In this document: in pieces, positions 3,157 through 58,578 of the stretch
How positions within the stretch are numbered: the first letter of the stretch is position 1
How the letters are laid out: every line of letters begins with the position of its first letter
From: Patescibacteria group bacterium
GTDB lineage: Bacteria > Patescibacteriota > Patescibacteriia > Magasanikbacterales > GWA2-37-8
Length of the DNA stretch: 64,000 bases
Assembly (NCBI GenBank): GCA_041649475.1
Contig: JBAZNA010000001.1
Location: forward strand, 197,022-261,021
Direction of reading: 5' to 3'
Position numbers and translations under genes: made by a program
The notes under the pieces: model-generated
Told to the model about the DNA's origin: nothing
What the model saw: the letters and a program-made list of their open reading frames with translations, nothing else
The model's database searches: none

Positions 3157-3162
3157 AAATAT

Positions 3163-4727: not shown

Positions 4728-6026
4728 ATGATTACCCTATTAATCTTTTTGGCCATCTTGGCAATTTTGGTTTTATCCCATGAATTTGGGCATTTTGTTG
4801 CCGCGCGCCGAAGCGGGATGAAGGTTTATGAGTTTGGTTTTGGCTTTCCGCCAAGGTTATTTGGCATCCAACTGCTCAAAAGCAGAAAACCGGCTAAAAT
4901 TGGTGAAATTCAAGAAACAGATATAAAAATTGAAGATATAAAAACAGCGGACGGCCAGGAGGTTGTGACCGAAACAGTGACGACAGACACTAAGACAATA
5001 GTTCAAACCACGAAAAAGTGGCGTTTTATTTGGTGGAATAAGGATGTTGTACCTGAAGAAGGAGACAGCACGCTGGAACATGGCACGGTTTATTCTTTTA
5101 ATCTGATTCCCCTGGGCGGTTTTGTGCGTATCAAAGGTGAAGAAGGCGACGAAACAGGTCCGGATAGTTTTAATACGCAAAAAACTTGGAAAAAGGCCAT
5201 CACGCTGGTTGCCGGCGTGGCCATGAATGTGGTTTTAGCCGCGATTTTGCTTTCAATCGGGTTTATGACCGGCATACCGCAAGCGGTTGATGATTCTACG
5301 GTTGGAGTGAGAAACAGGCACGTGGAAATCGTCCAGGTTTTGCCGGGCAAGCCGGCCGAGCTGGCTGGTTTAAAAGCCGGCGATGAATTTTTAAAAATTG
5401 ATAATATAAATTCTCCCAGTTCAAAACAATTGCAGGATTATTTAAATGCCAATAAAGATAAAAATATTAATGTCGTTGTAAACCGGAATGGCCAGCTTAT
5501 TACAAAAGATATTCATCCAATTATTTATCCGGATACGGGCAAGGCGGGTTTGGGTGTGTCCATAGTTGATGTCGGCGTGGTTGGTTATCCGTGGTATAAA
5601 GCCATATATTATGGAATAATAACCACCGGATTTTATTTGAAAGAAATCGTGTTGGCGTTTTACGGTTTGATTAAAGGGCTCTTTGTCGGCGCGCCGGTGG
5701 GTGATGCTGTTTCCGGGCCGGTGGGCATTGCGGTTATGACCGGGCAAGTGGCTAAACTTGGTTTTGCTTATTTGTTAAATTTTACCGCCTTATTATCATT
5801 GAATTTGGCAATCATAAATATTTTGCCGATCCCGGCTTTAGATGGCGGTCGGTTGTTATTTCTGGTAATCAATAAATTTAAACGCAAGCAAATTAATCCC
5901 AAGCATGAACAGTTGGCGCATACCATCGGTTTTGCCCTGTTGATGCTTCTGGTGGTGGTGGTGACGGTAAAAGACATCGGCGCGTTTAGCGGTTCAATCG
6001 TGAACTTCTTTAAAAATTTATTTTAA
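4728..6026 (+). CDS. rseP: RIP metalloprotease RseP (site-2 protease, peptidase M50) with PDZ domain
   Basis: HEFGHF zinc motif at the N-terminus, a central PDZ-like region, and a C-terminal LDGG motif. Confidence 0.85.
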   Translation: MITLLIFLAILAILVLSHEFGHFVAARRSGMKVYEFGFGFPPRLFGIQLLKSRKPAKIGEIQETDIKIEDIKTADGQEVVTETVTTDTKTIVQTTKKWRFIWWNKDVVPEEGDSTLEHGTVYSFNLIPLGGFVRIKGEEGDETGPDSFNTQKTWKKAITLVAGVAMNVVLAAILLSIGFMTGIPQAVDDSTVGVRNRHVEIVQVLPGKPAELAGLKAGDEFLKIDNINSPSSKQLQDYLNANKDKNINVVVNRNGQLITKDIHPIIYPDTGKAGLGVSIVDVGVVGYPWYKAIYYGIITTGFYLKEIVLAFYGLIKGLFVGAPVGDAVSGPVGIAVMTGQVAKLGFAYLLNFTALLSLNLAIINILPIPALDGGRLLFLVINKFKRKQINPKHEQLAHTIGFALLMLLVVVVTVKDIGAFSGSIVNFFKNLF

Positions 6027-6034
6027 TTTTAAAT

Positions 6035-7066
6035 ATGCAATCTAAACTGCAGAAATTAAAAACCGAAGCCCTGCTGGCGATAAAATCCGCAAAAGATAAA
6101 TTGGAAGTTGAGGCCTTGGAACAGAAATTATTCGGCCGCAAGGGCGGAGAGATGACGGATATCTTGAAAGGCATAAAAGATTTGAGCGAAGATGCAAAAA
6201 AAGAAATCGGGCAATTGGCCAATGAAGTGAAAAAAGAAATTGAAAACGCGCTGGCCGCAAAAAAACAAGAGGTTTTGTCAAAAAGTTTTGCCGGCGCCTT
6301 GGAAAAAGAGCGAGTGGATTTAACCCAGCCGGCTTTGCCGCATCAAGAACGCGGGCATCTTCATCCGGTGTCAGTAATTCAAAATCAGTTGGAGGATTTA
6401 TTTGCGTCAATGGGTTTTATGGTTTTAGACGGTTCGGAATTGGAAAGCGATTATTATAATTTTTCAGCGGTAAATATTCCGGAAGATCATCCGGCGCGCG
6501 ACATGCAGGATACTTTTTATATTAAAAACCATCCGGATTGGGTGATGCGAACCCACACTTCTTCAATGCAGGTGCGGGGAATGCAAAAATACGGCGCGCC
6601 GCTTCGGGCGATTATTCCGGGCAAGTGTTACCGGAATGAAGCCACCGATGTCAGGCATGAACACACCTTTTATCAAATGGAGGGGTATGTTGTTGATAAA
6701 AATATCAACTTCGGGCACATGAAAGCGGTTTTGGAAACCGTGGCCAAAAATTTGTACGGCGCGGAAACCCAGGTTCGGCTGCGGCCGAAGTTTTATCCGT
6801 TTGTGGAGCCGGGCGTCAACGGCGAAGTGACTTGTTTTTTGTGTCATGGCAACGGTTGCCGGTTGTGTAAAAACAGCGGCTGGCTGGAGATTTTTGGCGC
6901 CGGTATGATTCACCCCAATGTTTTAAAAGAAGCCAATATTGATTCGAAAATTTATTCCGGTTTTGCTTTTGGCTTTGGTCTCACCCGTTTGGTGATGCTT
7001 AAATACGGCATTGAAGACATCCGCCTGCTCCAAAGCGGGGAGATGAAATTTTTAGAACAATTTTAA
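6035..7066 (+). CDS. pheS: phenylalanine--tRNA ligase alpha subunit
   Basis: Class II aaRS motifs: FYPFVEPG, EIFGAGMIHPNVL. Confidence 0.9.
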   Translation: MQSKLQKLKTEALLAIKSAKDKLEVEALEQKLFGRKGGEMTDILKGIKDLSEDAKKEIGQLANEVKKEIENALAAKKQEVLSKSFAGALEKERVDLTQPALPHQERGHLHPVSVIQNQLEDLFASMGFMVLDGSELESDYYNFSAVNIPEDHPARDMQDTFYIKNHPDWVMRTHTSSMQVRGMQKYGAPLRAIIPGKCYRNEATDVRHEHTFYQMEGYVVDKNINFGHMKAVLETVAKNLYGAETQVRLRPKFYPFVEPGVNGEVTCFLCHGNGCRLCKNSGWLEIFGAGMIHPNVLKEANIDSKIYSGFAFGFGLTRLVMLKYGIEDIRLLQSGEMKFLEQF

Positions 7067-7084
7067 CTTTCTTTCACACAGAAT

Positions 7085-9532
7085 ATGCTTATCTCTTTTA
7101 ACTGGTTAAAAAAATACGTCAAGTTACCTGATTCGGTTAGTGCCGAGGATGTAGCTGAAAAATTAAAGCAAAGCACGGTGGAAATTGAAAAAGTGGCCAG
7201 TCGCGCCAAGGATTTGGAAAATATTGTAGTTGGAAAAGTTGTGTCTTGCGATAAACATCCGAATGCCGATAAATTACAGGTTTGCAAAGTCAGCGTCGGC
7301 AATGAAGAAGTGGAAGTTGTTTGCGGAGGCAGTAATGTGAAAGAAGGAATGCTGGTGGCGCTGGCAAAAGTTGGCGCCAAAGTGCGCTGGCATGGAGCCG
7401 GGGAGTTGGTTGAGCTTGCGCCAACAGAGATTCGCGGCGTGAAATCATTCGGGATGATTTGCGCGTCAACTGAAATCGGTCTGGCTGACATGTTTCCTTT
7501 AAAAAGCGAAAAAGAAATTTTGGATTTGAGCGGCGTGAAAGCAAAGCCGGGCGCGCCTTTAAACAAAGCGTTGGGTTTGGATGATGCGGTTTTAGAAATT
7601 GATAATAAATCTTTGAGCAACCGGCCCGATCTGTGGGGGCATTACGGCCTGGCGCGTGAAGTGGCCGCGTTATATAAAAAGGATTTAAAAGCATACGAGG
7701 TCAAGAAAATAAAATCGGGCAAGGGCCTGAAAGTGAAAGTAGAAATTGAAGATAAAAAGTTGTGTCCGCGGTATATGGCCGTGGCCGTCTCGGGAATTAA
7801 GGTGAAAGAGTCCCCGGAGTGGCTAAAGAAAAGTTTGTTAGCAGTGGGCCTGCGACCAATAAACAACATCGTTGATATCACCAATTATGTGATGATGGAT
7901 TTGGGTCAGCCCATGCATGCGTTTGATGCCAAGGTTTTATCTGGCGATAAGAAACAGGCCGCGATTGTGGTGCGGCGTGCGAAAGACGGCGAAGAATTCG
8001 TTACTTTGGATGAACAGAAAAGAAAATTGGATTCGTCAATGCTTATGATTGCCAATCCGGAAAAATCGTTGGCCATTGCCGGCGTAATGGGCGGGATGGA
8101 AAGCGGAATTAATGCCGGTACTGATACTATAATTTTTGAATCCGCCAATTTTGATGCTTCATCAATAAGAAAAACGTCTACTAAATTGGGTTTGCGCACT
8201 GATTCATCGGCTCGTTTTGAAAAAAGTTTGGATCCGAATTTGTGCGTGTCGGCTTTAAGCAAAGCCGTCCAATTGGCGCTGGAATTAAATCCCGGCGCCG
8301 GTGTAGGCGGTAATATTGCCGATGAAGCAAATTTTCATCTTAGCACGGGTCCAATAGGATTTGGCCTGGAATATTTGAAGAAAATTGCCGGAGTGGAAAT
8401 TTCCAAAAAAGAAGCGGTAAGCATTTTAGAACGATTGGGTTTTGCGGTCACCGGTAAAGGCGATGAAATGAAAGTAAAAATTCCCAGCTGGCGCGCCACC
8501 AAAGACATCTCTCTTCCCGAGGACTTGGTTGAAGAAATTGTGCGTATTTATGGCTATGAAAATATATTGTCTGCGATGCCGACGTTTCCGATAAACCCGC
8601 CGGAAGAAAACAAAGTGCGTAAACTGGAAAGACAAATTAGGGATTTGCTGGTAAAAGAAATGTCATATACGGATATGTATAATTATTCTTTTGTCAGTCC
8701 GCAGATGATTGCCAAAATGAATGATGATGTTAAAAAATATATTGAACTTGATAATCCAATTTCGCAGGAACGGCCGTATGTGCGCCGGCATTTAATCACT
8801 AACCTGTTGGAAAATATTTTAAAAAATATTGATAATCATCCCACTTTGCGTTTATTTGAAATCGGTAAAACCTTTATAAGTGAAAAGCCGGGGCAAAGAA
8901 CAATGGCCAACAATGACGATCTGCTTCCGCGCCAGGACACCTGGCTGACAAGTGTGTTTGTGGAAAAGAAAAATGCGGCGCCGTTTTGGCAGGCACGCCG
9001 GGTAGTGGAAAATATTCTGGGCGATTTGGGGCAAAATTTTGAAGTGAAGGTGCCGAAAGAAATTTATCCGTGGCAGCATAAAGCGCGCGTGGCCAGAGTA
9101 ATGGTTGCCGGAGAAGATGTGGGTTCGGTTTATGAACTTAATCCGGCCGCGGGAGCCAACTTAGGTTTAGAGTGGAGCGTGGGCGTGGCGGCGTTAAACA
9201 TTGATAAGCTGGCAATGCTGCCTGTGTCTGACAAAAAATATAAACCACTGTCAGAATATCCGGCCATAGAACGGGATTTGGCGATTTTGGTGAAAAAAGA
9301 AGTTTCACACGGTGAAATTATTTCAGCCCTGGCGCACACTGATCCGATTTTAGCATCTGTGGATCTGTTTGACGTCTATGAAGGAGAGAACATCGGCGCC
9401 GGTTACAAAAGCATGGCTTATCATTTTGTCTATCGCGACCTTAAGCGAACCCTTACGGCCGGAGAGGTTGAAAAAGTGCACAGTAAAATTTTAAAAATTC
9501 TTCAGGAAAAATTTAAAGCGAGCGTGAGATAG
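7085..9532 (+). CDS. pheT: phenylalanine--tRNA ligase beta subunit
   Basis: 815 aa with N-terminal tRNA-binding domain, B3/4 and B5 domains and a C-terminal FDX-ACB domain; directly follows pheS. Confidence 0.9.
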   Translation: MLISFNWLKKYVKLPDSVSAEDVAEKLKQSTVEIEKVASRAKDLENIVVGKVVSCDKHPNADKLQVCKVSVGNEEVEVVCGGSNVKEGMLVALAKVGAKVRWHGAGELVELAPTEIRGVKSFGMICASTEIGLADMFPLKSEKEILDLSGVKAKPGAPLNKALGLDDAVLEIDNKSLSNRPDLWGHYGLAREVAALYKKDLKAYEVKKIKSGKGLKVKVEIEDKKLCPRYMAVAVSGIKVKESPEWLKKSLLAVGLRPINNIVDITNYVMMDLGQPMHAFDAKVLSGDKKQAAIVVRRAKDGEEFVTLDEQKRKLDSSMLMIANPEKSLAIAGVMGGMESGINAGTDTIIFESANFDASSIRKTSTKLGLRTDSSARFEKSLDPNLCVSALSKAVQLALELNPGAGVGGNIADEANFHLSTGPIGFGLEYLKKIAGVEISKKEAVSILERLGFAVTGKGDEMKVKIPSWRATKDISLPEDLVEEIVRIYGYENILSAMPTFPINPPEENKVRKLERQIRDLLVKEMSYTDMYNYSFVSPQMIAKMNDDVKKYIELDNPISQERPYVRRHLITNLLENILKNIDNHPTLRLFEIGKTFISEKPGQRTMANNDDLLPRQDTWLTSVFVEKKNAAPFWQARRVVENILGDLGQNFEVKVPKEIYPWQHKARVARVMVAGEDVGSVYELNPAAGANLGLEWSVGVAALNIDKLAMLPVSDKKYKPLSEYPAIERDLAILVKKEVSHGEIISALAHTDPILASVDLFDVYEGENIGAGYKSMAYHFVYRDLKRTLTAGEVEKVHSKILKILQEKFKASVR

Positions 9533-10031: not shown

Positions 10032-10046
10032 AAGTTGCCTCCTATC

Positions 10047-10075
10047 TTGACAAAAAAATATTTTTAGTGTATTCT
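10047..10075 (+). promoter_or_regulatory. sigma70-like promoter TTGACA-N17-TATTCT driving G+C-rich ORF a
   Basis: Consensus -35 hexamer with 17-nt spacer. A 5'UTR hairpin (CCCGGACC...GGTTCGGG) and a GGAAGGAG RBS lie before the ATG at 10150. Confidence 0.5.
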
Positions 10076-10149
10076 TGGTGATTATTCCTTAGGTAAGGAA
10101 GCCCGGACCATTCCGGTTCGGGTATGATGATAGAGGAAGGAGAAAAAAG

Positions 10150-10497
10150 ATGGGAATGCGCGCGAAGGACTGGGAGGCGGCCCAGGCCGTTTTCTTGAAA
10201 GAGGCCGGTGCCGACCCTGACCCCGACGATTCGTGGACCGTAGTTCGGTCGCCGAGTTTGCAGGAGCTTCTGCTGGCAAAGGAGCAGGAGTTCCCGGTTG
10301 AGCTCGAGCTCTCCGACGGCCGCAAGATGACCGTGTTCGTCGAGGATATCAAGGACCCCGACGCGCACGGCGAAGTGGAGGTGTACGTAATGTACGTCGC
10401 CAACGGCAACCGGCGCCGGCGGTACCTGCACTTCACCCCCGACGTCTACGAGCCCAGGGTCAACGTCTACCCCGAGCCCAAGGAATCCGTGGGCTGA
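10150..10497 (+). CDS. hypothetical protein, compositionally foreign (G+C-rich cassette a)
   Basis: 115 aa (MGMRAKDWEAAQAV...) with a GGAAGGAG RBS 7 nt upstream and G/C-ending codons. Followed by terminator GCCCAAGC-ATCT-GCTTGGGC + T7 (10521..10548). No motif recognised. Confidence 0.5.
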   Translation: MGMRAKDWEAAQAVFLKEAGADPDPDDSWTVVRSPSLQELLLAKEQEFPVELELSDGRKMTVFVEDIKDPDAHGEVEVYVMYVANGNRRRRYLHFTPDVYEPRVNVYPEPKESVG

Positions 10498-10587
10498 CCC
10501 CACTTCCTCCCTCGTCTCACGCCCAAGCATCTGCTTGGGCCTTTTTTTGTTGATTTTGTTATGGCTTTCGGGTAAGATACGAGCACT

Positions 10588-13500
10588 ATGCCCGACTTTG
10601 TTCACCTCCATGTCCACAGCCATTATTCGCTTTTAGATGGCCTGCCAAAAATTGACGAGCTAGTTAAGCATGCCAAAAGTTTGGGCATGACTGCCCTTGC
10701 CCTCACCGATCATGGTAATATGTATGGCGCCATTGAGTTTTATGAGCGGTGTCAGAAAGAGGGAATAAAACCGATCATCGGCATGGAGGCATACTTGGCT
10801 CCGGGCAGTCGTTTTGATAAAAATCAAAATGACAAGTATTATCATCTGGTGTTGTTGGCTTTGGATTATACCGGTTATAGAAATTTGATGAAGCTGGCTT
10901 CGCTGGCTCATCTGGAGGGGTTCTATTACAAACCCCGTGTTGATAAAGAACTTCTAAAACAATATCATGAAGGTTTGGTTGCTTCATCTGCCTGTTTTGG
11001 CGGCGAGATTCCTTGGATTTTGCGCAAAGAAGATAATTTTGAGAAAGCCAAAAAAGTGGCGTTGGAATACGAAGAAATTTTTGGCAAAGGAAATTTTTAT
11101 CTGGAACTGCAGGACTTGCCGGGTTTGGAAGGTCAGATGGAGATGAATACAAAATTAATTAAGCTTTCCCAAGATACTGGCGTCCCGCTTATTGTCACCC
11201 GTGACGTGCATTATTTGAAACCGGAGGACGCCGAAGCCCAGGATATTTTAACCTGCATCCGCGACGGCCGGACTTTGGATGAACCCAATCGCCAGACCAT
11301 GAATGCGGTTGATTGTTCAATGGCTAGCGTCAAAGAAATCGCCGGCCGCTTTAAACATATTCCTGAAGCATTGGAGAACACGGTTAAGATTGCCGAAAGA
11401 GCGAATCTGGTTTTAGAACTTAATAAATGGCATTTTCCGCCTCTTGAGCTTCCGGTCGGGCAGACCGCCGACAGTTATTTGCGCGAGCAGGTTTATGAAA
11501 GATTGCCGAAGCTGTTGCAGATAACCGAGGAGGTGAAAAAAAGAGTTGACTATGAGTTGGAAATTATCGCCAAAAAAGGTTATTCTCCGTATTTTTTAAC
11601 AGTTGCCGATTATGTGCAGTATGCGCGCGACCACGGCATTGCCGAAACGACCAGGGGCTCGGCTGCTGGTTCAATCGTTTCTTACGCTATAGGAATCGTC
11701 ACTGTTAATCCGCTGTATTTCAAATTGCCGTTTGAAAGATTTTTAAATCCATTCCGTCCCAGCCCGCCGGATATTGACGCGGACTTCGCCGACGACCGCC
11801 GCGACGACATGATTGCTTATGTCACGCAAAAATATGGTGCGGACAAAGTGGCGCAGATTATTACCTTCGGAACGATGATGGCGCGCGGAGCGGTGCGCGA
11901 TGTGGGCCGAGCGCTGGGCTATACCTATTCTTTTTGCGATCAGATTTCAAAAATGATTCCTTTTGGCGCGCAGGGTTTTCACATGAATATTGCCAAAGCC
12001 ATGGAGCTGGAGCCGGATTTAAAAAAATTATACGATCAAAATCCGCAAGCCCACCGTTTATTGGATTTGGCGCAAAAAGTGGAGGGCTGCGCCCGACACA
12101 CTTCCATACACGCGGCCGGAGTGGTGATTTCACCGACGCCGCTTACGGATTTTACTCCGGTTCAGCGCGAAACCGGCGGTGAGAGAATTACCACTCAATA
12201 TGAAATGCACGCGGTGGAGGCGGCTGGAGTTTTGAAAATGGACTTTTTGGGGATCCGCAATTTATCTATTTTGGGTCATGCCGTGGAAATTATAGAAAAA
12301 ACAACCGGCCAGAAAATTGATATCTACAAATTGCCCTGGGATGACAAAAAAACCTATGAAATGCTGGCGCGCGGTGAAACTATCGGTGTGTTCCAGCTTT
12401 CCGGATCTGGCATGACCAGATATTTGAAAGAATTAAAGCCGGCCAGCATCTTTGATATTATGGCCATGGTGGCACTGTTTCGCCCCGGGCCAATGGAATC
12501 AATTCCCGAATATATAAAAAGAAAAAATCATCCGGAACTGATTGAATATCTTGATCCGCGCATGGAAAATTATCTTGATCAGTCCCTGGGCTTGATTGTT
12601 TATCAGGACGACGTTTTGCTTACGGCTATAAATTTGGCCGGATACAATTGGGAGGAAGCGGATAAATTCAGAAAAGCGATGGGCAAGAAAATTCCGGAAG
12701 AAATGGCCAAGCAGAAAGAGAAATTTTTTAAGGGCTGCCGTGAATTCGGGCATTTGTCCGAAGCAAAAATCAACACCCTGTGGGAACGCATTGAGCCGTT
12801 TGCCGCTTATGGTTTTAACAAGGCCCATGCCTGCAGTTATGGAGTTGTGGCCTATCAGACCGCCTATCTGAAAGCTAATTTTCCGGTGCAGTATATGACC
12901 GCGATTTTGATTGCGGAAAGCGGCGACATTGATAAAGTGCCGGAAATTATTCATGAGTGCGAGAGAATCGGCATAAAGGTCTTACCGCCCGATGTTAATG
13001 AAAGTTTTAAAAATTTCGCCATGATTTCGCCGGAAGACGGATCCGAGCCGCACATTAGGTTCGGTTTAAACGGCATAAAAAATCTGGGCGAGCATATTGC
13101 CGAAGTGATTTACCGCGAACGCAAAGAACATGGCACGTATAAAGACCTGCAGGATTTGCTCACGCGTGTAAATGATAAGGATTTAAACAAAAAGTCCCTG
13201 GAAAGTTTGGCTAAATGTGGCGCGCTTGATTGTTTTGGCCATGACCGGGGATTGCTTTTGGCCAACACGGACAACCTTTTGGGTTTTGTCAGGCAGATGC
13301 ATGAGAAAACCCAATCAAACCAGAATTCGCTTTTTTCAGGCACAACGATTGATTTGTCCGCCAAAGTTCAGCTTAATCCGGCGCCCCTGGCCGATGAAGC
13401 CGACAAGCTGATTTGGGAAAAAGAATTGCTGGGACTCTTCGTCACTTCCCATCCATTTAAGTATTTTGAAAAAATTATGAACGGCGTGCTGACACCGATT

Positions 13501-14055: not shown

Positions 14056-15037
14056 GGTCGGCCTTAAGGTTCCGCCAATTTGTAAAATCTTCTTTAAGGG
14101 TATGATAATATCCGGCCACGGCAATCATGGCCGCGTTGTCCATGCAGTATTTTAAGTCCGGATATTTTATGTTGCTGCCGGAAAGTGCATCGGCGAAGGT
14201 TTCCCGCAGTTTTAAATTTGCGCTCACGCCGCCGCCAACCACGATTGTCTTCGGCCGGAATTCTTGCACCGCTTTGACGGTTTTAGAAACCAAAACATCA
14301 ACAATGGCCTGTTCCAAACTGGCGCAAAAATCTTCCAGTGTAATTTTTTTATTGATTTTATGATCTCTTAACCAATAAAGAGCCGAGGTTTTCAGTCCGG
14401 CAAAACTAAAATTATAATTATCATCATTTATCATCGGCCGCGGAAATTTTATCGCCTGCGGATTTCCGTTTTTTCCCAGTTTAGAAATTTGCGGACCGCC
14501 CGGATAGGGGAGATCAACCAGCTTGGCCACCTTATCAAAACATTCTCCGGCTGCGTCGTCACGGGTCGCGCCCAGTAGTTTATATTGCCTGGGTTTTTTT
14601 ATTAAAATTAATTCGGTATGGCCGCCGCTCACCACCAAACACAAAGCTGGAAATTCTATCTTGGAGTCGGCCGCGATCTCCGTAGAATAAATATGGCCTT
14701 CAATATGATTTACTGCCACCACCGGAATTTTTAAAGCGTACGATAAAGTTCTGGCCGCTTCCACGCCTACCAATAATCCGGTAATCAGCCCGGGTCCGGC
14801 CGTGACCGCAATCGCATCCGGCTGGGGCTGGTTTTCCAAAATGAGTTCAATCAGCGGCGTAATTTTTTCCGCATGCGCCCGGCCGGCGATTTCCGGCACC
14901 ACCCCGCCGTATTTTTTGTGAATGTCAATTTGCGAAGCGGTTTTTTCCGATACCACAACGCAACCTTGGCTTGAACAATTGAGCAAGGCCACCGAAGTAT
15001 CGTCACAGGAACTTTCTATACCAAGAATAAGCATATT
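14036..15037 (-). CDS. tsaD: tRNA N6-adenosine threonylcarbamoyltransferase TsaD
   Basis: MLILGIESSCDDTSVAL is the canonical TsaD/Kae1 N-terminus, with metal-binding His motifs. The ORF track extends the start to 15151, but that 38-aa extension runs into the G+C-rich cassette and is judged spurious. Confidence 0.8.
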   Translation of the reverse strand, partial: NMLILGIESSCDDTSVALLNCSSQGCVVVSEKTASQIDIHKKYGGVVPEIAGRAHAEKITPLIELILENQPQPDAIAVTAGPGLITGLLVGVEAARTLSYALKIPVVAVNHIEGHIYSTEIAADSKIEFPALCLVVSGGHTELILIKKPRQYKLLGATRDDAAGECFDKVAKLVDLPYPGGPQISKLGKNGNPQAIKFPRPMINDDNYNFSFAGLKTSALYWLRDHKINKKITLEDFCASLEQAIVDVLVSKTVKAVQEFRPKTIVVGGGVSANLKLRETFADALSGSNIKYPDLKYCMDNAAMIAVAGYYHTLKEDFTNWRNLKADPNWKIV

Positions 15038-15117
15038 TTTCGCAATACCGAATTTCCTATTTAGAAACTCGGTATTACGGAGGAAGACGTGTGTCTTCCT
15101 CGACTCCTTATGTCTCC

Positions 15118-15576
15118 TTATGGCCAGTTGAGTTCCGCCGGCATAGGCCAATCACTGGCGTCGAAACTCACGAATCCCGGCGTCCATTTGAACTTGGACG
15201 CTTCTCCCGGACCAGAAGTGCCCGTGAGCTCGTGAATTTTTTTAGAACTGAGCACCTTGAGCGGCGACATCTCTTTCGGCTCCGGGCTATCGATAGTGGC
15301 CTGGAGAGAATAACCAATCCCTTTCGTGGGATTGTAGAGGAGAAGTTGCGTGGCGACTTTTGCCCGTTTGTGCTCAAGGCAGTCCCACACCATCTTCAAG
15401 AGCGGCTTCTCCACTACGACCACAGGTTCATTATCCTCTGCAGTCAGAGCTGGGAATACACCCATCAGTCCGTGTTCGATCAGCAGTAGGTAACCGTACC
15501 GAAGCTGCCATCCGCTCAGATCCTTTTCGAAGATGCTTCCCAGCGCCGGTCCTTGTTTGCTCATGGTTTCCTCCAA
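15118..15576 (-). CDS. hypothetical protein, compositionally foreign (G+C-rich cassette b)
   Basis: 152 aa (MEETMSKQGPALGSIF...). RBS GGAGG, then 5 nt, then ATG. Starts 21 nt after the 3' end of tRNA-Met and is followed by a perfect hairpin GAGGAAGAC-GTGT-GTCTTCCTC (15080..15101). Confidence 0.5.
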   Translation of the reverse strand: MEETMSKQGPALGSIFEKDLSGWQLRYGYLLLIEHGLMGVFPALTAEDNEPVVVVEKPLLKMVWDCLEHKRAKVATQLLLYNPTKGIGYSLQATIDSPEPKEMSPLKVLSSKKIHELTGTSGPGEASKFKWTPGFVSFDASDWPMPAELNWP

Positions 15577-15597
15577 GATCGAGATCGTTTTCCCGAG

Positions 15598-15671
15598 TGT
15601 CAGGGGAGGGAGTCGGACCCTCGACCTTAGGGTTATGAATCCTACGCTCTTACCAACTGAGCTACCCTGAC
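15598..15671 (-). tRNA. tRNA-Met (anticodon CAT; elongator versus initiator not resolved)
   Basis: Hand-folded cloverleaf: acceptor GTCAGGG/CCCTGAC, D-arm GCTC-AGTTGGTAA-GAGC, anticodon loop TTCATAA, T-arm GAGGG-TCCGACT-CCCTC. TTGACT-N17-TATACT promoter upstream on the minus strand. Confidence 0.8.
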
Positions 15672-15755
15672 ATTACCGAAAGTATACAAAAAAAAATGGC
15701 TTTAGTCAATGTTGATTTTGGCTCTGTTCTGTGATAGTGTAAATTCAATAATTTT

Positions 15756-16796
15756 GTGATTATGTTGGAAAAAAGGCCTTATGAAAACTCAATACCGCTT
15801 GTCGGCCAGAATCGGCCGTCTTTTGCTGTGGAAAAAGTTGTTTTGGGGCAGAAAAGAGAAGCCAGGGAGTGTTTGAGACGCTGTTATGAATATCGCGACA
15901 GCAAGGGTGAATTTATCGCCCAGGGGTTGGTTGATGTAAATGCCAAACCGTTTCCTATTGAATCGCCGGATCCAAAGCTTGGATTTTACAACGGCTGGAA
16001 GCTGGAGTCCTTTATTATTATATCCAAAGAAGGAAAAAAGCGTGACGTATTAAAAAATTTAAACAAAGACGGCCAGCCGCTGCCGGATATAGTCATAGAC
16101 GATTTGGTGGAGCAATGTGGGTATATCAATGAACCAAAAAAGATGATAGTCGTGCCGCCGCTTAAGTCCGCCAAAGAAATTGAAGAGTTGGTGCATGAAA
16201 ATATGCACGCACAACAGGATAATAACAGCCATTTTAAACCACTTTTGGATTTGTATGAATGGTCGGAGATGGATGCCGGTGCGCTTGGCGAGGCGGAAGT
16301 GGAAAAACGGTTGCGTGAAATTTTGCGGGCGGTTTCCCATTTTGGCGAAGCAAAAAAGTTTGCCAAGCAATTGAAGGATGATGTTACTTTTTTTGAAGGC
16401 GCACTGCGGTCTGGCAAAGTGCCGGCCTCTGAAGTGCCAAAGATGATGGAAGAGCGGGTCAAACGGATACAAAAAATGTTTTCTTTACCAATGCAGATAT
16501 GTGAGATAGACGCCGAAGACGGGGGATTAAAAGGGTTGGAAGAAATTAAAGAAACCATAGGCGCTGATTTTTTGGCGCCGTTTATCTGGACACCGTCAGT
16601 GATTGCCGACACCCCGCACTCCAGAGCGCTGGACGCGGAAGAAGAAAACCGCTTTGAGGTGTTGGGAACATCTGATTTATACGAGCAAAAGAAAAAATTT
16701 GAGCACGGCAAGCCGTCAGTCACCAGTGTGCCGGCGATTGTCAAAATGTATCTTGAATCCGTGGGCGCTTTGCCGGCGCCATGGGAAAAAGGTTGA
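15756..16796 (+). CDS. hypothetical protein
   Basis: 346-aa ORF with host-like composition; no recognisable motif. Confidence 0.45.
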   Translation: MIMLEKRPYENSIPLVGQNRPSFAVEKVVLGQKREARECLRRCYEYRDSKGEFIAQGLVDVNAKPFPIESPDPKLGFYNGWKLESFIIISKEGKKRDVLKNLNKDGQPLPDIVIDDLVEQCGYINEPKKMIVVPPLKSAKEIEELVHENMHAQQDNNSHFKPLLDLYEWSEMDAGALGEAEVEKRLREILRAVSHFGEAKKFAKQLKDDVTFFEGALRSGKVPASEVPKMMEERVKRIQKMFSLPMQICEIDAEDGGLKGLEEIKETIGADFLAPFIWTPSVIADTPHSRALDAEEENRFEVLGTSDLYEQKKKFEHGKPSVTSVPAIVKMYLESVGALPAPWEKG

Positions 16797-18073: not shown

Positions 18074-18400
18074 TCACAGGACCACTTCTTCGTAGTAGTC
18101 GGCCCGCTCGTGGCTAGCGTAGGGGCTTGATTTGGCATCCTTGAGCGCAGCTGCGGCGAACGGTTCGTCTATGGTGACCTCGGCAACGTTCTCGCACTTG
18201 GCGATCAACAGCTGACAACCATCACAGCCGAATCCGGTCACGGTTGCCAGAACCAGCGCCTCCTTGATCTTCGGTACCCGGCCCTCTTTGCGGATGGCTT
18301 CGGCCACATCGGCCGCGTTTTCTCCACCGCAGTCGGTCCAGAACTTGAAAACAACCTCATCACCCTTGCGCACACTAACGAGTCCGGTTTTTCCGTGCAT
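18074..18400 (-). CDS. hypothetical Cys-containing protein, compositionally foreign (G+C-rich cassette c)
   Basis: 108 aa with four Cys (C..., GCDGC, KC). AAGGAGG RBS with 7-nt spacer begins immediately after the TAA stop of the upstream FAD-oxidase gene. A hairpin terminator follows. Confidence 0.5.
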   Translation of the reverse strand: MHGKTGLVSVRKGDEVVFKFWTDCGGENAADVAEAIRKEGRVPKIKEALVLATVTGFGCDGCQLLIAKCENVAEVTIDEPFAAAALKDAKSSPYASHERADYYEEVVL

Positions 18401-29580: not shown

Positions 29581-29922
29581 CTAGCCGGCGGCGGAAGCGG
29601 CGATGGGGGCGATCTTGGGCTGGATGTCGATCACGGGGATCGGCTCGGGCAGACCGTCGAAGCGCTGGCGGAGCCAGTCGATCTCGGGCTCCGAGGCCTC
29701 GCCCATGAAGATCTCGATGTAGAACGTCCCCCTGATGAGGCCCTCGTACTTCAGCTTGAAGCCGGGGATCTCGTCGTCGAAGTCGGCCTTGTGCGGCCTG
29801 TTGACGTACCTGTTGAAGTCGTTGAGCGAGCAGTACCTGACGCTGCCGTCCACGAACTGGATCCGTACGGCCCTTGTCTGCAAGGTCGTGTCCGGGAACG
29901 TCATCAGCTTCTGGATCGGCAT
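29581..29922 (-). CDS. hypothetical protein, compositionally foreign (G+C-rich cassette e)
   Basis: The ORF track extends to 29994 with a TTG start. An internal ATG at 29922 (MPIQKLMTFPD..., 113 aa) is preceded by AAGGAGAGGGAG and is preferred. TTGACA-N17-TACCAT promoter at 30038..30066 (minus) and terminator CTTCCCT-CCCC-AGGGAAG + T7 at about 29470..29500. Confidence 0.45.
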   Translation of the reverse strand: MPIQKLMTFPDTTLQTRAVRIQFVDGSVRYCSLNDFNRYVNRPHKADFDDEIPGFKLKYEGLIRGTFYIEIFMGEASEPEIDWLRQRFDGLPEPIPVIDIQPKIAPIAASAAG

Positions 29923-30082
29923 CTCCCTCTCCTTGGGACTACGAGCTCGTGTGACCATCTTGTTATGCCTCCCTTGTTTCCGTGTTGGGCCCAATGCCCC
30001 TAAACTTGTTGGCCTTGTCCAGGCCGTGATGGGCTAAATGGTATCACAATAATACGATTATGTCAAGAAGAATGGCCAAAAA

Positions 30083-41855: not shown

Positions 41856-41884
41856 TTGACCAATTGTCTTTTTTATGCTAAAGT
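41856..41884 (+). promoter_or_regulatory. sigma70-like promoter TTGACC-N17-TAAAGT for cassette f
   Basis: Follows the thrS terminator (GCACCC-ATTACC-GGGTG + T-run at about 41815..41845). A 5'UTR hairpin CCTGCC-AGAGAAA-GGCAGG and an AAGGAGG RBS (41917..41923) follow. Confidence 0.5.
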
Positions 41885-41931
41885 ATGTGGTTCCTGCCAG
41901 AGAAAGGCAGGTCAGAAAGGAGGCCTCTCGG

Positions 41932-42312
41932 ATGACACGGGTCATGAGTTTGATGGCTTTCTACGCGACTTATCGTCTCTTAAAGGTCGCGTACCGTGCG
42001 ACCGAGAGACAGCTTAGGCTATTCTTCGTCCCCAAGCCGGGGTGCGAGGGGGCCTACGAGGTGGATGAGCAAATCTTCGCCAAGGTTCGGACGCTCATCG
42101 TCAATTCCAGGTCGTTTCAGACCGAAATCTACCCGCTGAACGCCAGTGACGTGGGGGAAGATTTCCGCCTTGGCGACCAGGATTTCACCGGCTCGGTGAT
42201 GGTCTGGCTGAAGGAAGTAGATCCTTTAGACGCACTGTTTACCGACAGAATCAAGGAGGTTGTGTTCGGAGAGGAGAAAGAGTATCGCTTTCAGTGCGGT
42301 TCCCGCAACTAG
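41932..42312 (+). CDS. hypothetical protein, compositionally foreign (G+C-rich cassette f)
   Basis: The ORF-track start at 41875 would lie inside the -10 box. The in-frame ATG at 41932 sits 8 nt after AAGGAGG (MTRVMSLMAFYATYRLL..., 126 aa). Confidence 0.45.
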   Translation: MTRVMSLMAFYATYRLLKVAYRATERQLRLFFVPKPGCEGAYEVDEQIFAKVRTLIVNSRSFQTEIYPLNASDVGEDFRLGDQDFTGSVMVWLKEVDPLDALFTDRIKEVVFGEEKEYRFQCGSRN

Positions 42313-54261: not shown

Positions 54262-55680
54262 TTATAGGGAGCCGGTTTTTCTGATGACAACAAAAGGTGT
54301 TTTAATTAGAATTATGAGATCTAAAAATAAACTCCAGTTTTCTATATAAAATGTGTCCAGCTTTATTTCTTCTTCATAGCTTAAATTGCTGCGTCCGGAA
54401 ATTTGCGCCAAGCCGGTGATACCGGGTTTGATTTCTAAAACTATTTTATGCTTTCTTTCGTAATTTTCAACCTCCCGGGGCTGGTGCGGACGCGGGCCGA
54501 CCAAACTCATTTCACCTTTGAACACATTAAAGAATTGTGGCAATTCGTCTATGCTCCAGCGGCGGATAAACCGGCCAAACGGAGTGACACGCGGGTCATT
54601 TTTGATTTTGTAAATCGGACCGTTTTTTATGCTTTGTTTTTTGATCAGTTCCTGTTCTTTGGCCAAAGCCACGGTGGAAGCTTTTTTGCCAAACTGAATG
54701 CCGTTTGAATCTTTTTGATACATTGATCGAAATTTTAGCGTGAAGAATTTTTTATCGGCTTTGCCGACTCTTTCATTTTTGTAAATCACCGGCCGGCCGG
54801 TTTCAATTAAAATTATTAAAGAGATAATTAAATAAATTGGAGAGAGGATAATTATAAAAAATATACTGCCGATAATATCTATTAGTCGTTTGAAAATTCT
54901 GCCCCAACCCGTCAGCCGCGTTAAGCGCAGTTCAATAATCGGAATGCCGGTGATGGTGGAAACGGCCATGTTGGTGGAAATGGTTGAAAACAAATCAGCT
55001 GAATATTTGAAAGCGATGTGATGTTCGTTGGCAAAATCAATTGCTTCCAACGCCTCTTTTTCATTAGCTTTCGGATCCGTAAAAATTATTTCGTCCGGTT
55101 TTAGTTTTAAAATTGTTGGTTCGCTGGCGACATCAAAACCATCGTAGGTGGCCACCACTTTATAGCCAAATGACTTGTTGAGTAGTGATTGCTTGATTTC
55201 CTGGCCGATAATTTCTTTGCCGATAATAATTGTGCGGCGTAGTCCTACGCCGGCTTTGTGTAGCCAGATTTTTAAACCGGCGGTGAGGATGCGCCCCAGT
55301 GACACAAAGATAATGGCTAAAATCCAACCGACCAAAACCAAAAATCTGGAATCAAATTTTTGCAAGGTGAAAAAAACATAAATGGTGATGCCGGCAAAAC
55401 CGGTGGCGGTGGCCATGACCACTCGGGTGAGATCGCGGGCGAGCTTGCGGTTGGGGTTGGTGCTATATAACCCGGATAAAGCAAAAATAATAATCCAGGC
55501 CGCGGCTGTAAGCAAGACCAATGGCCAGTATCTTTGCCAGGAAAGATTAAACAAAACCGGCCGGATGGCTTTGGCAAAATCAGCAAAGCGAAGCGTGTAG
55601 GCAGTAAAGCCGGCCAGTATCAGCAGGGCAAAGTCAAGAGGAAGTTGGAGTAAGGTAAAAAAGAGTTCAAATTTTTTCAT
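54262..55680 (-). CDS. undecaprenyl-phosphate sugar phosphotransferase (bacterial sugar transferase, WbaP/WcaJ-like priming enzyme)
   Basis: C-terminal KRLIDIIGS...PVIYKNERVGK...TLKFRSM...DELPQF...GEMSLVGPRP signature. The ORF track extends the start to 56025 into cassette g; it is reassigned to MKKFELFF at 55680. Confidence 0.75.
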   Translation of the reverse strand: MKKFELFFTLLQLPLDFALLILAGFTAYTLRFADFAKAIRPVLFNLSWQRYWPLVLLTAAAWIIIFALSGLYSTNPNRKLARDLTRVVMATATGFAGITIYVFFTLQKFDSRFLVLVGWILAIIFVSLGRILTAGLKIWLHKAGVGLRRTIIIGKEIIGQEIKQSLLNKSFGYKVVATYDGFDVASEPTILKLKPDEIIFTDPKANEKEALEAIDFANEHHIAFKYSADLFSTISTNMAVSTITGIPIIELRLTRLTGWGRIFKRLIDIIGSIFFIIILSPIYLIISLIILIETGRPVIYKNERVGKADKKFFTLKFRSMYQKDSNGIQFGKKASTVALAKEQELIKKQSIKNGPIYKIKNDPRVTPFGRFIRRWSIDELPQFFNVFKGEMSLVGPRPHQPREVENYERKHKIVLEIKPGITGLAQISGRSNLSYEEEIKLDTFYIENWSLFLDLIILIKTPFVVIRKTGSL

Positions 55681-55734: not shown

Positions 55735-55764
55735 TTGACAAGAGAGCTGTTTTAGTGTTAATTT
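55735..55764 (+). promoter_or_regulatory. sigma70-like promoter TTGACA-N17/18-TAATTT for cassette g
   Basis: Perfect -35 consensus, with AAGGAG RBS 7 nt before the ATG at 55839. Confidence 0.45.
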
Positions 55765-55838
55765 AACGTGCTGTGGCGAAACCATTCTGGCCAAGCCCGA
55801 CAGCGTCTGTAAACACGGTCGTATAAAGGAGACAAAAC

Positions 55839-56504
55839 ATGGCGACCGCAAAACAGATTCCGTTTTTGATGGGAAGGTTGGTGGAGCATCAGTTTTACTT
55901 CTGTGCTTTGTCCACCGCAAGCGCCACGTGGGCGAGCCAAAACCCGAAAGACGCCATTGCCTTGTGCGTGGCGGCGATCGAGAATCGCCAAAAGGAGCGT
56001 CAGTCCGACCCGGCGCCTTCGCCACTCCTCACCTTGGTCGGTGCCGTCGTGATCTGGCTGGCCGTGAGGTTCGTTGCCAGTGAACACCTGGTGAAGAATA
56101 CCGAGAAGAACGCGCCGGTGAAGATTTCCTACATCTTCGATAAGGTCACCGTGTGGTTCCAGGGCAAGATCGAGGAGCGGGTCGAGGGCGAGATGGCTCT
56201 GTGCTGCCATACCCTGAACTCCGACTCGGACGATAACCTCATCATCAACCAGCTCGGCGGCGAGACCAAGGCCGAGACCGCCCTTGCCGAGGTCTTTGCC
56301 TGCTTGGAGAAGCAACCCAACGGCGAGGATGGTGCGCTACTCACTAACGGCCACGCGAACATCTTCTATGTTCGCAACACCGAAGGTGTGTTGTGCGTGA
56401 TCCAAGTGATCTGGCGCGGTGACGGTTGGACCTTCTACACCCGTTCGGTCGGTTCTCTGGACACATGTACCGAGGGCCGCCGGGTGTTCTCCCGCGCCGC
56501 ATAG
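55839..56504 (+). CDS. hypothetical Cys-containing protein with one central hydrophobic segment, compositionally foreign (G+C-rich cassette g)
   Basis: 221 aa (MATAKQIPFLMGRLVEHQFYF...), AAGGAG RBS, terminator GCCCCGCC-N9-GGTGGGGC + T7 at 56521..56555. Confidence 0.5.
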   Translation: MATAKQIPFLMGRLVEHQFYFCALSTASATWASQNPKDAIALCVAAIENRQKERQSDPAPSPLLTLVGAVVIWLAVRFVASEHLVKNTEKNAPVKISYIFDKVTVWFQGKIEERVEGEMALCCHTLNSDSDDNLIINQLGGETKAETALAEVFACLEKQPNGEDGALLTNGHANIFYVRNTEGVLCVIQVIWRGDGWTFYTRSVGSLDTCTEGRRVFSRAA

Positions 56505-56565
56505 TTTGTTCCTTCCTTCCAAGCGCCCCGCCTGTCAGATGGTGGGGCATTTTTTTATCCAAATC

Positions 56566-56594
56566 TTGACAAAACCCCTCATTTGTGCTATAGT
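56566..56594 (+). promoter_or_regulatory. sigma70-like promoter TTGACA-N17-TATAGT driving the ncRNA
   Basis: Perfect -35 consensus, 17-nt spacer, near-consensus -10; lies 10 nt after the cassette g terminator. Confidence 0.5.
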
Positions 56595-56600
56595 TAACCC

Positions 56601-56950
56601 ATTCATAGCGGATGATCGAGCCGACTTAGTCGGCTAGGAAAGTCCGAACACCCAAGATGGCAGTGGGTAACGCCCACCGCTACGGTGGCAACGCCGTGGT
56701 TGGGAAAGTGGCACAGAGACAATTCTAACCCCGACAAGCTCGGGGTAAAAGGTGAAAAGTGTATGGGGGATTTGGTTCTCGAGACCAAAGCTACTATACT
56801 CGGCTGATAGCAATATCAGTTCGTGCTAAACCCTGCCTGGTGCAAGAGCAGCGTTTCGCGGCGCAAAACCGCGGTTCGAAAAGTTCGCTCGCTAGAACGC
56901 GTTAGCAATAACGCGTCCAGATAAATGATCGTCACCTCGCCCCATTTTTA
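56601..56950 (+). ncRNA. rnpB: structured ncRNA with RNase P RNA (bacterial type A)-like conserved blocks; candidate rnpB with an atypical catalytic-domain 3' half
   Basis: No ORF over 72 aa. Blocks in canonical order: P3-like hairpin GCCGAC-TTA-GTCGGC, then AGGAAAGTCCGAAC (cf. AGGAAAGUCCGGGC), GGCAG (P7 5'), P8-like GTGGG-TAAC-GCCCAC, P9-like ACGGTG-GCAA-CGCCGT, P12-like CCCCGA-CAAGC-TCGGGG, then AAGGTGAAAAGTG (cf. GGGUGAAAGGGUG), CTGATA-GCAA-TATCAG, CTAAACCCTGCCTGGTGCAAG (cf. GGUAAACUCCACCCGGAGCAAG), and ACGCGTTA-GCAA-TAACGCGT. Three GCAA tetraloops. The expected P4 3' strand (ACAGAAnCCGGCUUA) is not found. Confidence 0.45.
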
Positions 56951-57000
56951 AACAAAATGGTGCGGAGCACAAAATTCGGCTTATAGCTATGAATAAAAAA

Positions 57001-57032
57001 GACGACCCGCAAGGGCCGTCTTTTAATATATC
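57001..57032. terminator. bidirectional intrinsic terminator AAAAGACGACCC-GCAA-GGGCCGTCTTTT
   Basis: 12-bp stem with one mismatch and a GNRA loop, flanked by A/T runs; serves the ncRNA (+) and the convergent 57040..58578 gene (-). Confidence 0.6.
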
Positions 57033-57039
57033 CGCGGAT

Positions 57040-58578
57040 TTATGATGTTCCCGGCGCCATCGTTGGTTGCTGTTGCATCATCGGCTGTTGTGGTTGTTGT
57101 GGCATGTATTGTTGCATTCCCTGCGGCATTTGTACTTGTTTAAATTGTTGCGGCCCTTGTTCCCAAGGCATTATTTCTCCTTCTTGTCCGGTCAGTTCAT
57201 TAACCTTATTGCCAAAATCCTGTCTTAAATTTTCTAAGTCATCCAGGGCTGATGTAATCGTATCAACATCATAATTTTTACTCGCAATCAAATCTTTTAT
57301 TTCCTGTCCTTTTACTTTTATTTCATCCAGAATTGGTACAAGTTCGGATGTGTCTATCTTCTTTTTCTTTAATTGATTGATTGTTTGTTGCGCTTGATTG
57401 ACACTTTGTTTAAAGGTGGAATTGAAACTGCCCAGGTTACCCATCATCATTATAATCTGGTCATTCTGCATTATGTCATCCATTTGGCCGAAGAAATCAT
57501 TTTCCACGGTATCAAACGCGCCCTGTGAATCATCGGTGGCCATTTTGCTTACCGCGTCCGCTTTAACCGCTTTGAGTTTATTAACCGCCTCTTCAAATGC
57601 GTTGTAAACACTTTGGATGTCTATGCCCTTCTTAACTAATTTATCAGTGATTTGTTTGGCGCGTTTGAGCTCACGGGTAAGCATGGTGAGCTGTTTGTCC
57701 ATCTGTTTTAAGGTTTGCGGCCAGCGAGCCAGCATCTCCAGTGTCTGACGGTCTTGGTTTAAATTTTCCATTGCTTCAGACATTGAATTGAAATCAATAT
57801 CATTCAACTGATCGGCGGTGGTCGCGTTTTTTATACTGTTAATAATATTCCTTAGGTTAAGAATATTTTCTTGGGTGTTGGTCGGAATGGATATTTTTTG
57901 TTTTTGGAATTTGGCCACTTGTTTTTCAAACATATTAAGCTGCGATTCCATGCCTTTGATATTTCGTTTCATGTCCTGCAATCTTTGGTTTGCCTGAAAA
58001 ACATCCTGCCTATATTGGTCTAAGGATTGTGACAGATCCTGCATCTCGCCCATATCAACATTTTGCATTTCTTCCATGGTGCTCACATTGGAAGCGGCCG
58101 CGACCAAATCTTTTAATTTAACCAAATTTTGTTTGATATCATCCGGTACGGTGATTCCGCTTTTCTCCGATTGGGCTATCATCCGGTCGTATTCTTTAAT
58201 GGATCGTTGCAGTTGTTTTATACTATTTTTTATTTGTTTAAGCTGTTGTTCCGGACTTGGACCATAATTCGGTTGTTGCGGCGGCTGTTGTGGGGGTTGT
58301 GGTTGTGGCTGTGGTTGTGGCTGTGGTTCAGGACCCGGCTGTTGCGGGCCAGGGTTGGGCTCCGGAGATGGTTGAGGTGGAGTCGGGGGAGTTGGTTCGG
58401 GGGGAGCCGGAGCAATGACTTGTTGCTCTTCCGCTGAAGTATTGTTGGTGCCTAGCGTGCTTAAAAAGTTTTTTAATATTTGCGGAAGTTCTATATAAAA
58501 AGCTTTGGCTGGCATGGCAAATGAAAAAGTCACGGCCATGGCCACGGTTAGAATAGAAATGTTTATTATTTTTTTCAT
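57040..58578 (-). CDS. secreted hypothetical protein with Pro/Gln-rich linker and coiled-coil regions
   Basis: Signal peptide, then PEPTPPTPPQPSPEPNPGPQQPGPEPQPQPQPQPQPPQQPPQQ, with Q/M/P-rich C-terminus. The DNA at about 58290..58330 is a (CAGCCACAACCA)-type tandem repeat. Confidence 0.45.
   Translation of the reverse strand: MKKIINISILTVAMAVTFSFAMPAKAFYIELPQILKNFLSTLGTNNTSAEEQQVIAPAPPEPTPPTPPQPSPEPNPGPQQPGPEPQPQPQPQPQPPQQPPQQPNYGPSPEQQLKQIKNSIKQLQRSIKEYDRMIAQSEKSGITVPDDIKQNLVKLKDLVAAASNVSTMEEMQNVDMGEMQDLSQSLDQYRQDVFQANQRLQDMKRNIKGMESQLNMFEKQVAKFQKQKISIPTNTQENILNLRNIINSIKNATTADQLNDIDFNSMSEAMENLNQDRQTLEMLARWPQTLKQMDKQLTMLTRELKRAKQITDKLVKKGIDIQSVYNAFEEAVNKLKAVKADAVSKMATDDSQGAFDTVENDFFGQMDDIMQNDQIIMMMGNLGSFNSTFKQSVNQAQQTINQLKKKKIDTSELVPILDEIKVKGQEIKDLIASKNYDVDTITSALDDLENLRQDFGNKVNELTGQEGEIMPWEQGPQQFKQVQMPQGMQQYMPQQPQQPMMQQQPTMAPGTS

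Follow-up and report, generated by a model that had tools for sequence, protein, structure and literature searches.

The stretch of DNA analysed here (64 kb, in the following called the window) is part of a 963-kb contig of a Patescibacteria metagenome-assembled genome (MAG) and harbours, at positions 55735 to 57032, a gene for a 221-aa protein which is directly followed by a structured RNA. We found that this RNA is the RNase P RNA of the host, encoded by rnpB, and that the protein belongs to a very large family of target proteins of diversity-generating retroelements (DGRs). Most probably (we estimate the probability at roughly 0.88) these are two unrelated transcription units, which are neighbours only since the variable-protein gene was inserted beside rnpB. 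The first unit (55735-56556) would be a self-contained module consisting of promoter, leader, open reading frame (ORF) and terminator, which encodes a stand-alone DGR variable protein, and the second (56566-57024) corresponds to the housekeeping rnpB with a conserved promoter of the sigma-70 type and a terminator of its own. An initial annotation of the sequence had mentioned such a constellation, a host rnpB alongside which a protein cassette landed by chance, as an alternative to the reading it had put forward. This alternative is borne out by the match to RF00010, by the synteny in relatives and by the assignment of the protein to a DGR family.

The RNase P RNA and its locus in related genomes

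The comparison with Rfam, which the initial annotation had named as a way to identify the RNA, gave a confident result. In a scan of the whole window with covariance models, the sole match other than tRNAs was RF00010 (RNaseP_bact_a) at 56600-56999 on the plus strand, with 175.1 bits at a gathering score of 100 (E = 7.8e-55). It spans positions 1-367 of the 367 positions of the model and is not truncated. The P4 strands are found in GAGGAAAGUCCG … ACAGAA … CGGCUUA, and the core blocks AGGAAAGUCCG, CACAGA and CGGCUUA match the RF00010 consensus with high posterior probability. Because of the full-length match and the presence of all conserved core blocks, we conclude that the RNA is the host housekeeping rnpB, for which catalysis is predicted from the sequence. 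The product of rnpB is the catalytic RNA of RNase P, the enzyme that, with RnpA as its protein partner, matures the 5' ends of tRNAs. The RNA had been described before as structured, GNRA-rich and approximately 350 nt long. It is indeed structured and its GNRA loops are those of RNase P RNA, but its length is about 400 nt. From other class A RNase P RNAs, with which it shares the full-length model, the P4 strands, the GNRA loops, an own strong promoter and the genomic position seen in relatives, it shows no notable difference beyond a small number of insertions specific to the lineage (one of 30 nt in a hairpin, and approximately 20 nt near the 3' end). Insertions of this kind are usual for RNase P RNA of Patescibacteria.

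The promoter of rnpB (56566-56594, plus strand) consists of TTGACA at 56566-56571, a 17-nt spacer and a TG-extended TATAGT, and matches 11 of 12 consensus positions. Its TTGACA begins 9 nt past the T-run of the terminator of the variable-protein gene. In the relatives' loci L013, L020, L027 and L036 (L numbers denote compared loci, and coordinates given with them refer to the respective locus) the motif TTGACAAAAC…TGTGCTATAaT is kept upstream of rnpB, and the comparison of the window with the spacers of relatives identified the right-hand TTGACAAAAC…TGTGCTATAGT as the conserved rnpB promoter. At its 3' end, rnpB shares a hairpin (56997-57024) with a convergent gene on the minus strand, which encodes a 512-aa coiled-coil protein. 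This hairpin was called as a minus-strand terminator with 12 pairs and a T-run, while TTTT comes after the stem on the plus strand, and it is probably a bidirectional terminator.

To place the locus in a wider context, 80 related loci from Magasanikbacteria, Uhrbacteria, Falkowbacteria and others were fetched with the neighbouring RNase J gene as anchor (RNase J identity 57-86 %), and the window genes and rnpB were mapped onto them, rnpB by nhmmer and the 221-aa protein by tblastn (E ≤ 1e-5). We detected rnpB in 37 of the 80 loci, and in 31 relatives it directly adjoins the same pair of a sugar transferase gene and a GT4 gene as in the window. When six relatives were compared with Rfam, five had a full-length RNase P RNA match at or above the threshold. 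A homologue of the 221-aa protein was found in none of the 80 loci, which means that at the orthologous locus the RNA exists without the protein. The spacer between rnpB and the transferase gene is shorter than 450 bp in 23 of the 31 syntenic loci, as compared to 920 bp in the window. In eight relatives, larger spacers hold unrelated genes (for riboflavin synthase subunits, a trypsin-like peptidase and ORFans), and therefore this spacer is a variable site. It seems to be an insertion hot spot.

A large family of DGR variable proteins

The 221-aa ORF (55839-56504, plus strand) carries the GenBank locus tag WC526_01275, and its product had no match in the profile libraries Pfam, PHROG, NCBIfam and PADLOC. 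A word-indexed search revealed ten homologues with 41-49 % identity, and an exhaustive HMMER search extended the family to 1,760 clusters (at 50 % identity) with E ≤ 1e-3 and 913 clusters with E ≤ 1e-10. Decisive for the assignment of the protein to a family of DGR targets was the genomic context of its homologues. The genes of the homologues P0002, P0003, P0006 and P0009 are each located directly upstream of genes for bAvd and/or an RVT_1 reverse transcriptase (RT), and their last approximately 110 nt are repeated about 455-477 bp downstream. In four of the first six homologue contexts, the mismatches between the downstream copy (template repeat, TR) and the copy at the end of the gene (variable repeat, VR) are located at TR adenines in 17 of 17, 18 of 22, 17 of 19 and 21 of 21 cases, and the few non-adenine mismatches sit at the 3' edge. 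With these adenine-restricted differences between the repeats and with Avd and RT next to them, the homologues carry the signature of DGRs. According to the mechanism worked out for the element of the Bordetella phage BPP-1 (summarised in PMC5758913 and PMC8144416), reverse transcription of the TR introduces errors specifically at adenines, and the resulting cDNA takes the place of the VR in the 3' end of the target gene.

With the family alignment as query, JGI metagenomes yielded 80 further family loci. Of these, 34 were informative, since their C-terminus was complete and their sequence extended for at least 2.5 kb downstream. An RT gene was present at most 3 kb downstream in 16 of these 34 loci and an adenine-biased TR likewise in 16, while in 15 neither an RT nor Avd nor a TR was detected within 5 kb. 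Altogether, approximately 29 further TR/VR pairs in cis were found in the metagenomic loci. No rnpB was detected near the family members in five homologue loci or in the 80 metagenomic family loci. Judged by these sequence features, the family is one of DGR variable (target) proteins, which is large and has no Pfam model so far. In DGR-linked members, the TR approximately 455 bp downstream is transcribed and copied by RT and Avd with misincorporation opposite adenines, and the cDNA overwrites the last approximately 110 nt of the target gene. In this way about nine AAY codons are randomised. In a small domain similar to C-type lectins, these codons would form the surface that binds the ligand.

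A structural model of the 221-aa protein was built by AlphaFold2 from an alignment of 11 sequences (mean pLDDT 82, pTM 0.69). It comprises a helical N-terminus of low confidence (residues 1-60) and a compact domain (residues ~61-221), for most of which the block pLDDT is 81-96, with a dip to 74 at residues 161-170. The VR maps onto the last three strands of the model. Foldseek searches of the model against PDB and BFVD gave no significant match, and a profile search against PDB sequences gave nothing meaningful. The nearest structural neighbours, none of them significant, are folds of the C-type lectin (CLec)/formylglycine-generating enzyme (FGE) type, including TvpA and Mtd. Based on the model, the domain likely resembles the C-type-lectin fold, and the family may have a ligand-binding role. 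For the targets of DGRs in the candidate phyla radiation (CPR), Roux et al. (2021) considered uncharacterised VR domains as probably new C-Lec variants.

The initial annotation had also pointed to a central hydrophobic segment and to several cysteines. A hydrophobic stretch is indeed present at residues ~62-80, but in the model it forms a buried beta-strand (E64-74; pLDDT 92 for residues 61-70 and 86 for 71-80) and not a membrane helix. Since this stretch is a core strand, a membrane protein was ruled out, and no evident signal peptide or membrane anchor was seen in the protein. The cysteines are likewise there, but in the family alignment there is no Cys among the invariant or nearly invariant columns, and for this reason a Cys-based metal or redox motif was ruled out as well.

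With the known DGR variable proteins, such as Mtd of the Bordetella phage BPP-1, TvpA of Treponema denticola, AvpA and TaqVP, the window protein and its family share several properties. The VR is at the extreme C-terminus, just before the stop codon, the homologues are paired with a TR that differs at adenines and stand beside Avd and a DGR-type RT, AAY codons are the origin of the variable positions, the VR is followed by a hairpin similar to a terminator, and the nearest folds are those mentioned above. The window protein differs in being very small (core of approximately 160 aa) and in lacking recognisable sequence similarity to the CLec/FGE families of Pfam or to a solved structure as well as an evident membrane anchor or signal peptide; further, TR, Avd and RT are all absent in cis from the 64 kb around the window copy. 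Candidate kin are the targets of the CPR DGR clade 2 (Roux et al. 2021) and possibly one of the unclassified VR clusters UVR1-6 from the CPR (Wu et al. 2018).

Several details of the family loci should be mentioned. In the canonical DGR of the Bordetella phage all parts are co-directional. In contrast, in the cassettes of the window protein family Avd separates TR from RT and is encoded on the opposite strand (L001 7108-7374, L002 7123-7299, L003 8050-8334). In L003, a DGR directly follows P0011, but its TR is the partner of the VR in another gene, which encodes an unrelated 200-aa target ending in …GFRFAAVRK (6001-6684, 6994-7596, 7943-8080). This arrangement could reflect target replacement, or P0011 could be a detached former target. 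P0010 is likewise without a cognate TR. The RT gene of the cassette closest to the gene of the window (L090 7040-8016) is split by a single frameshift into parts of 111 and 214 aa, which is either a sequencing error or a sign of a decaying DGR. The contigs of L131 and L139 are otherwise identical, but where L131 has VR, spacer and TR (3132-3709), L139 carries a fused TR sequence with A at 13 VR positions (1716-1850). Either recombination between VR and TR or an assembly collapse would account for this difference, which in the contig comparison appears as a VR/TR collapse. Finally, some family members are multi-domain proteins: P0012 (926 aa) contains five matched stretches and P0013 (379 aa) contains two.

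The identification of this family is important for several reasons. A hypothetical protein and a very large unnamed family of Patescibacteria gain a functional context as small DGR variable proteins, which presumably bind ligands, and the family would merit a profile for annotation. Apart from its unannotated size, the large share of copies that stand alone and the GC excess described below are of interest. The stand-alone copies raise the question whether CPR DGRs act on distant targets.

Probable insertion beside rnpB and present state of the window copy

The unit of the variable-protein gene starts with a promoter at 55735-55764 (plus strand), composed of TTGACA at 55735-55740, an 18-nt spacer and the extended -10 region TGtTAATTT at 55756-55764. 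The 5' leader (55805-55831, plus strand) contains the conserved block GTCTGTAAACACGG (55805-55818) and the ribosome-binding site AAGGAG (55826-55831), 7 nt ahead of the ATG. The gene is followed by an intrinsic terminator (56525-56556, plus strand) with the stem GCCCCGCC/GGTGGGGC in a hairpin at 56525-56548 (-20.5 kcal/mol, z = -2.8) and seven T at 56550-56556. An analogous hairpin with a T-run is found after the stop codon in every homologue cassette. The statement of the initial annotation that each of the two units has a perfect TTGACA as its -35 box (55735-55740 and 56566-56571) and its own terminator (56525-56548 with the seven T, and 56997-57024) proved correct, and from the sequence we infer that both promoters are used.

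The architecture ATTGACAA-N17/18-TGTTAtATT is also present upstream of the closest homologue, that of L090, and the block GTCTGTAAACACGG is, among 172 loci, common only to the window and the L090/L091 cassette. Because L090 has the same promoter and leader architecture, the left TTGACA belongs to the transcription unit of the protein. The homology between the window and L090 comprises promoter, leader, ORF and terminator, with the alignment reaching through GGGG(C)ATTTTTTTATC at the terminator, and stops after the T-run. Beyond this point, L090 continues with TR and RT, whereas in the window the rnpB promoter follows directly.

The left edge of the insertion site is marked by the sugar transferase gene (54262-55680, minus strand; Bac_transf, Pfam PF02397, E = 5e-64), the conserved neighbour of rnpB. 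The -35 box of the variable-protein gene overlaps TTGTCA, the minus-strand -35 box of this divergent gene, the promoter of which was called at 55741-55713. The left TTGACAA is 15 nt from the -10 region of the transferase gene (TATTTTAC on the plus strand), and relatives have the minus-strand -35 box of the transferase at the position of the left TTGACAA; in L019, the -35 box of rnpB is located there, too. In the simplest reading of these sequences, a module without a retroelement core would have been inserted at the TTGACAA (-35) of an ancestral rnpB promoter, and one TTGACAA would have been left on each side.

The region equivalent to the VR corresponds to the last approximately 35 codons of the gene (56391-56495, plus strand; …VIQVIWRGDGWTFYTRSVGSLDTCTEGRRVFSR) and ends in the conserved GC-rich CGGGTGTTCTCCCGC, which is identical to the 3' end of the VR of L002. 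Its codons are in register with those of the VRs and TRs in DGR-linked homologues (TRs of L001 and L002). When placed in register with 26 family TRs and compared to their consensus (not to a cognate TR), the window VR matched at 51 of 72 non-adenine columns and at 8 of 24 conserved-adenine columns. Matches are depleted at the adenine columns with an odds ratio of 4.9 (Fisher p = 0.0016), and this comparison with the family consensus gives the pattern expected of a VR that was written from an AAY-rich template. Two points weigh against this. The enrichment of differences at adenine columns may in part reflect relaxed selection at surface positions, and a cognate TR of the window copy was not seen in the window, so that this particular copy is a putative DGR target.

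Indeed, tblastn revealed neither RT nor Avd in the 64 kb, and neither repeat finding nor local alignment detected a cognate TR there (best score 36 as compared to 147 for a true pair). The window copy is therefore a stand-alone copy. A degenerate TR pattern, in which A is allowed at every non-A position of the VR, had no match in public collections of genome and metagenome contigs, which also lack the window's own VR, although the pattern does fit the latter in the window. When the RTs from the two cassettes closest to the window gene served as queries, no RT on the same 963-kb contig was among the best 120 of more than 8,000 matches each. Between near-identical contig pairs from different samples, no differences restricted to the VR were found, neither in stand-alone nor in DGR-linked copies.

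As to the present activity of the window copy, we consider it somewhat more likely that it is fixed than that it is served in trans. According to the first possibility, to which we give slightly better than even odds, the gene either arrived without the DGR core or lost its company later, and is one fixed variant under ordinary purifying selection. In line with this, the whole part comprising TR, Avd and RT is missing, with the homology to L090 ending right after the terminator, while promoter, ORF and terminator are intact and no DGR component is present in the 64 kb. Further, P0010 and P0011 also lack a cognate TR, P0011 in spite of a neighbouring DGR, the TR of which is paired with another gene. 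The 90 % identity cluster of the 221-aa protein has a single member, and the independent assembly L009 carries the identical sequence, which speaks for a fixed allele and against ongoing diversification. On the other hand, many stand-alone copies are intact and show fresh-looking adenine footprints, which fits service in trans at least equally well, and the absence of DGR components holds for the 64-kb window of the approximately 963-kb genome. Thus, the window copy would encode one fixed form of a binding protein, provided that no DGR located elsewhere in this genome serves it in trans.

Such a DGR core elsewhere on the chromosome (RT, Avd and a TR that would agree with 56391-56495 at all but adenines), which diversifies the gene of the window in trans, is a serious but clearly less probable explanation. 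In this case, the GC-rich 3' end of the VR and the downstream hairpin would act as target-recognition elements, and both the CGGGTGTTCTCCCGC and the hairpin are retained in the window copy. The 15 of 34 informative family loci without RT, Avd and TR within 5 kb keep intact ORFs. Moreover, when L102 was compared to the TR of L107, located on another contig, 15 of 16 mismatches fell at adenines, which is near the quality of a cis pair, and for L169 and the TR of L154, also on another contig, this was the case for 16 of 17 mismatches. For DGRs of other kinds, targets at a distance have been described (PMC5758913, PMC8144416). Against this explanation, we note that no TR was seen in the window and, as weak evidence, that the best 120 RT matches mentioned above include none on the same contig. 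In addition, Wu et al. (2018; PMC5758913) reported that the DGRs of the CPR mostly have a single target gene and that remote targets at more than 100 kb occurred in another lineage only. With non-adjacent targets such as the seven additional ones of the Treponema DGR (Wu et al. 2018), the window gene has in common that it belongs to a target family and stands alone, with no RT over more than 7.5 kb on one side of it and more than 55 kb on the other. It differs from them in that no matching TR was seen in the 64 kb, which makes it a candidate member of this class, and in CPR DGRs no remote target has been described.

It is tempting to speculate, although we regard it as unlikely, that the window gene is a live remote target whose last 35 codons are rewritten in trans, and that the approximately 45 % of family copies with no RT or TR nearby constitute a distributed repertoire served by one retroelement per genome. 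If this were true, remote DGR targeting over tens to hundreds of kb would extend to the CPR clade, and the GC excess of the family by approximately 11 points might be connected with repeated retrohoming.

From the layout of a protein gene with a dedicated RNA, the initial annotation had proposed a ribonucleoprotein or an RNA-guided system. That the 221-aa protein and the RNA beside it function together in this way has next to no probability, since nothing but the physical adjacency and the tidy arrangement of promoters and terminators speaks for it, while the RNA is rnpB, is present at the same locus without the protein in relatives, is never found beside the protein family in approximately 90 other loci, and the protein matches no nuclease or RNA-binding family and has lectin-like structural neighbours. 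Together, the confident RNase P match and the presence of the RNA without the protein in relatives refute this reading. The likeness to OMEGA systems of the IscB/TnpB type is superficial, being restricted to a protein gene beside a structured non-coding RNA: the window protein is without RuvC or HNH according to the profile libraries named above, and the RNA is an independently conserved housekeeping ribozyme that does not co-occur with the protein at other loci. In this respect a false lead is removed, and the adjacency of the two units is best seen as an accident of insertion.

Base composition and neighbouring genes

The 221-aa ORF has a GC content of 0.589 and a GC content at third codon positions (GC3) of 0.78 in a window with a GC content of 0.435. 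The deviation, from which a foreign composition had been deduced in the initial annotation, is real, but it is a constant property of the family and not a mark of foreignness. In the family, the variable-protein genes have on average 54.4 % GC compared to 43.1 % in their flanks, and the value is higher in 36 of 37 loci (Wilcoxon p = 1.3e-7). The RT and Avd genes of the same cassettes are AT-rich (34-46 % GC). Since the high GC content is constant across the family, it is not a sign of recent transfer, and a recent foreign acquisition inferred from it was rejected. Examples of loci with the excess of approximately 11 points are L001 (6001-6621 compared to 7108-8470) and L092 (9614-10279 compared to 11136-12143). 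A small high-GC ORF in these genomes should be checked for this family before it is read as recent foreign DNA.

Five more small high-GC ORFs are present in the window, at 10042-10623, 15118-15564, 18074-18400 and 29581-29958 on the minus strand and at 41875-42312 on the plus strand. They encode 108-193 aa and have a GC content of 0.54-0.62 in a genome with 0.43; the GC3 of 29581-29958 is 0.93. They have no Pfam match and no likeness to the 221-aa protein, and no repeats linking them were found in the window. Presumably they are the other cassettes of the initial annotation.

In the 512-aa protein encoded at 57040-58578 on the minus strand, between rnpB and the LDH gene, a signal-like segment at the N-terminus is combined with a low-complexity stretch rich in Pro and Gln and with long coiled coils. 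The protein belongs to no real Pfam family and is present in few relatives only. In the spacer between rnpB and the sugar transferase gene, L030 harbours a different ORFan (15313-15912, minus strand) of 199 aa and 66 % GC without a Pfam match. In L048, the locus of an Uhrbacteria relative, a DGR RT and Avd (14864-16160) are located directly after the same sugar transferase gene that adjoins rnpB.

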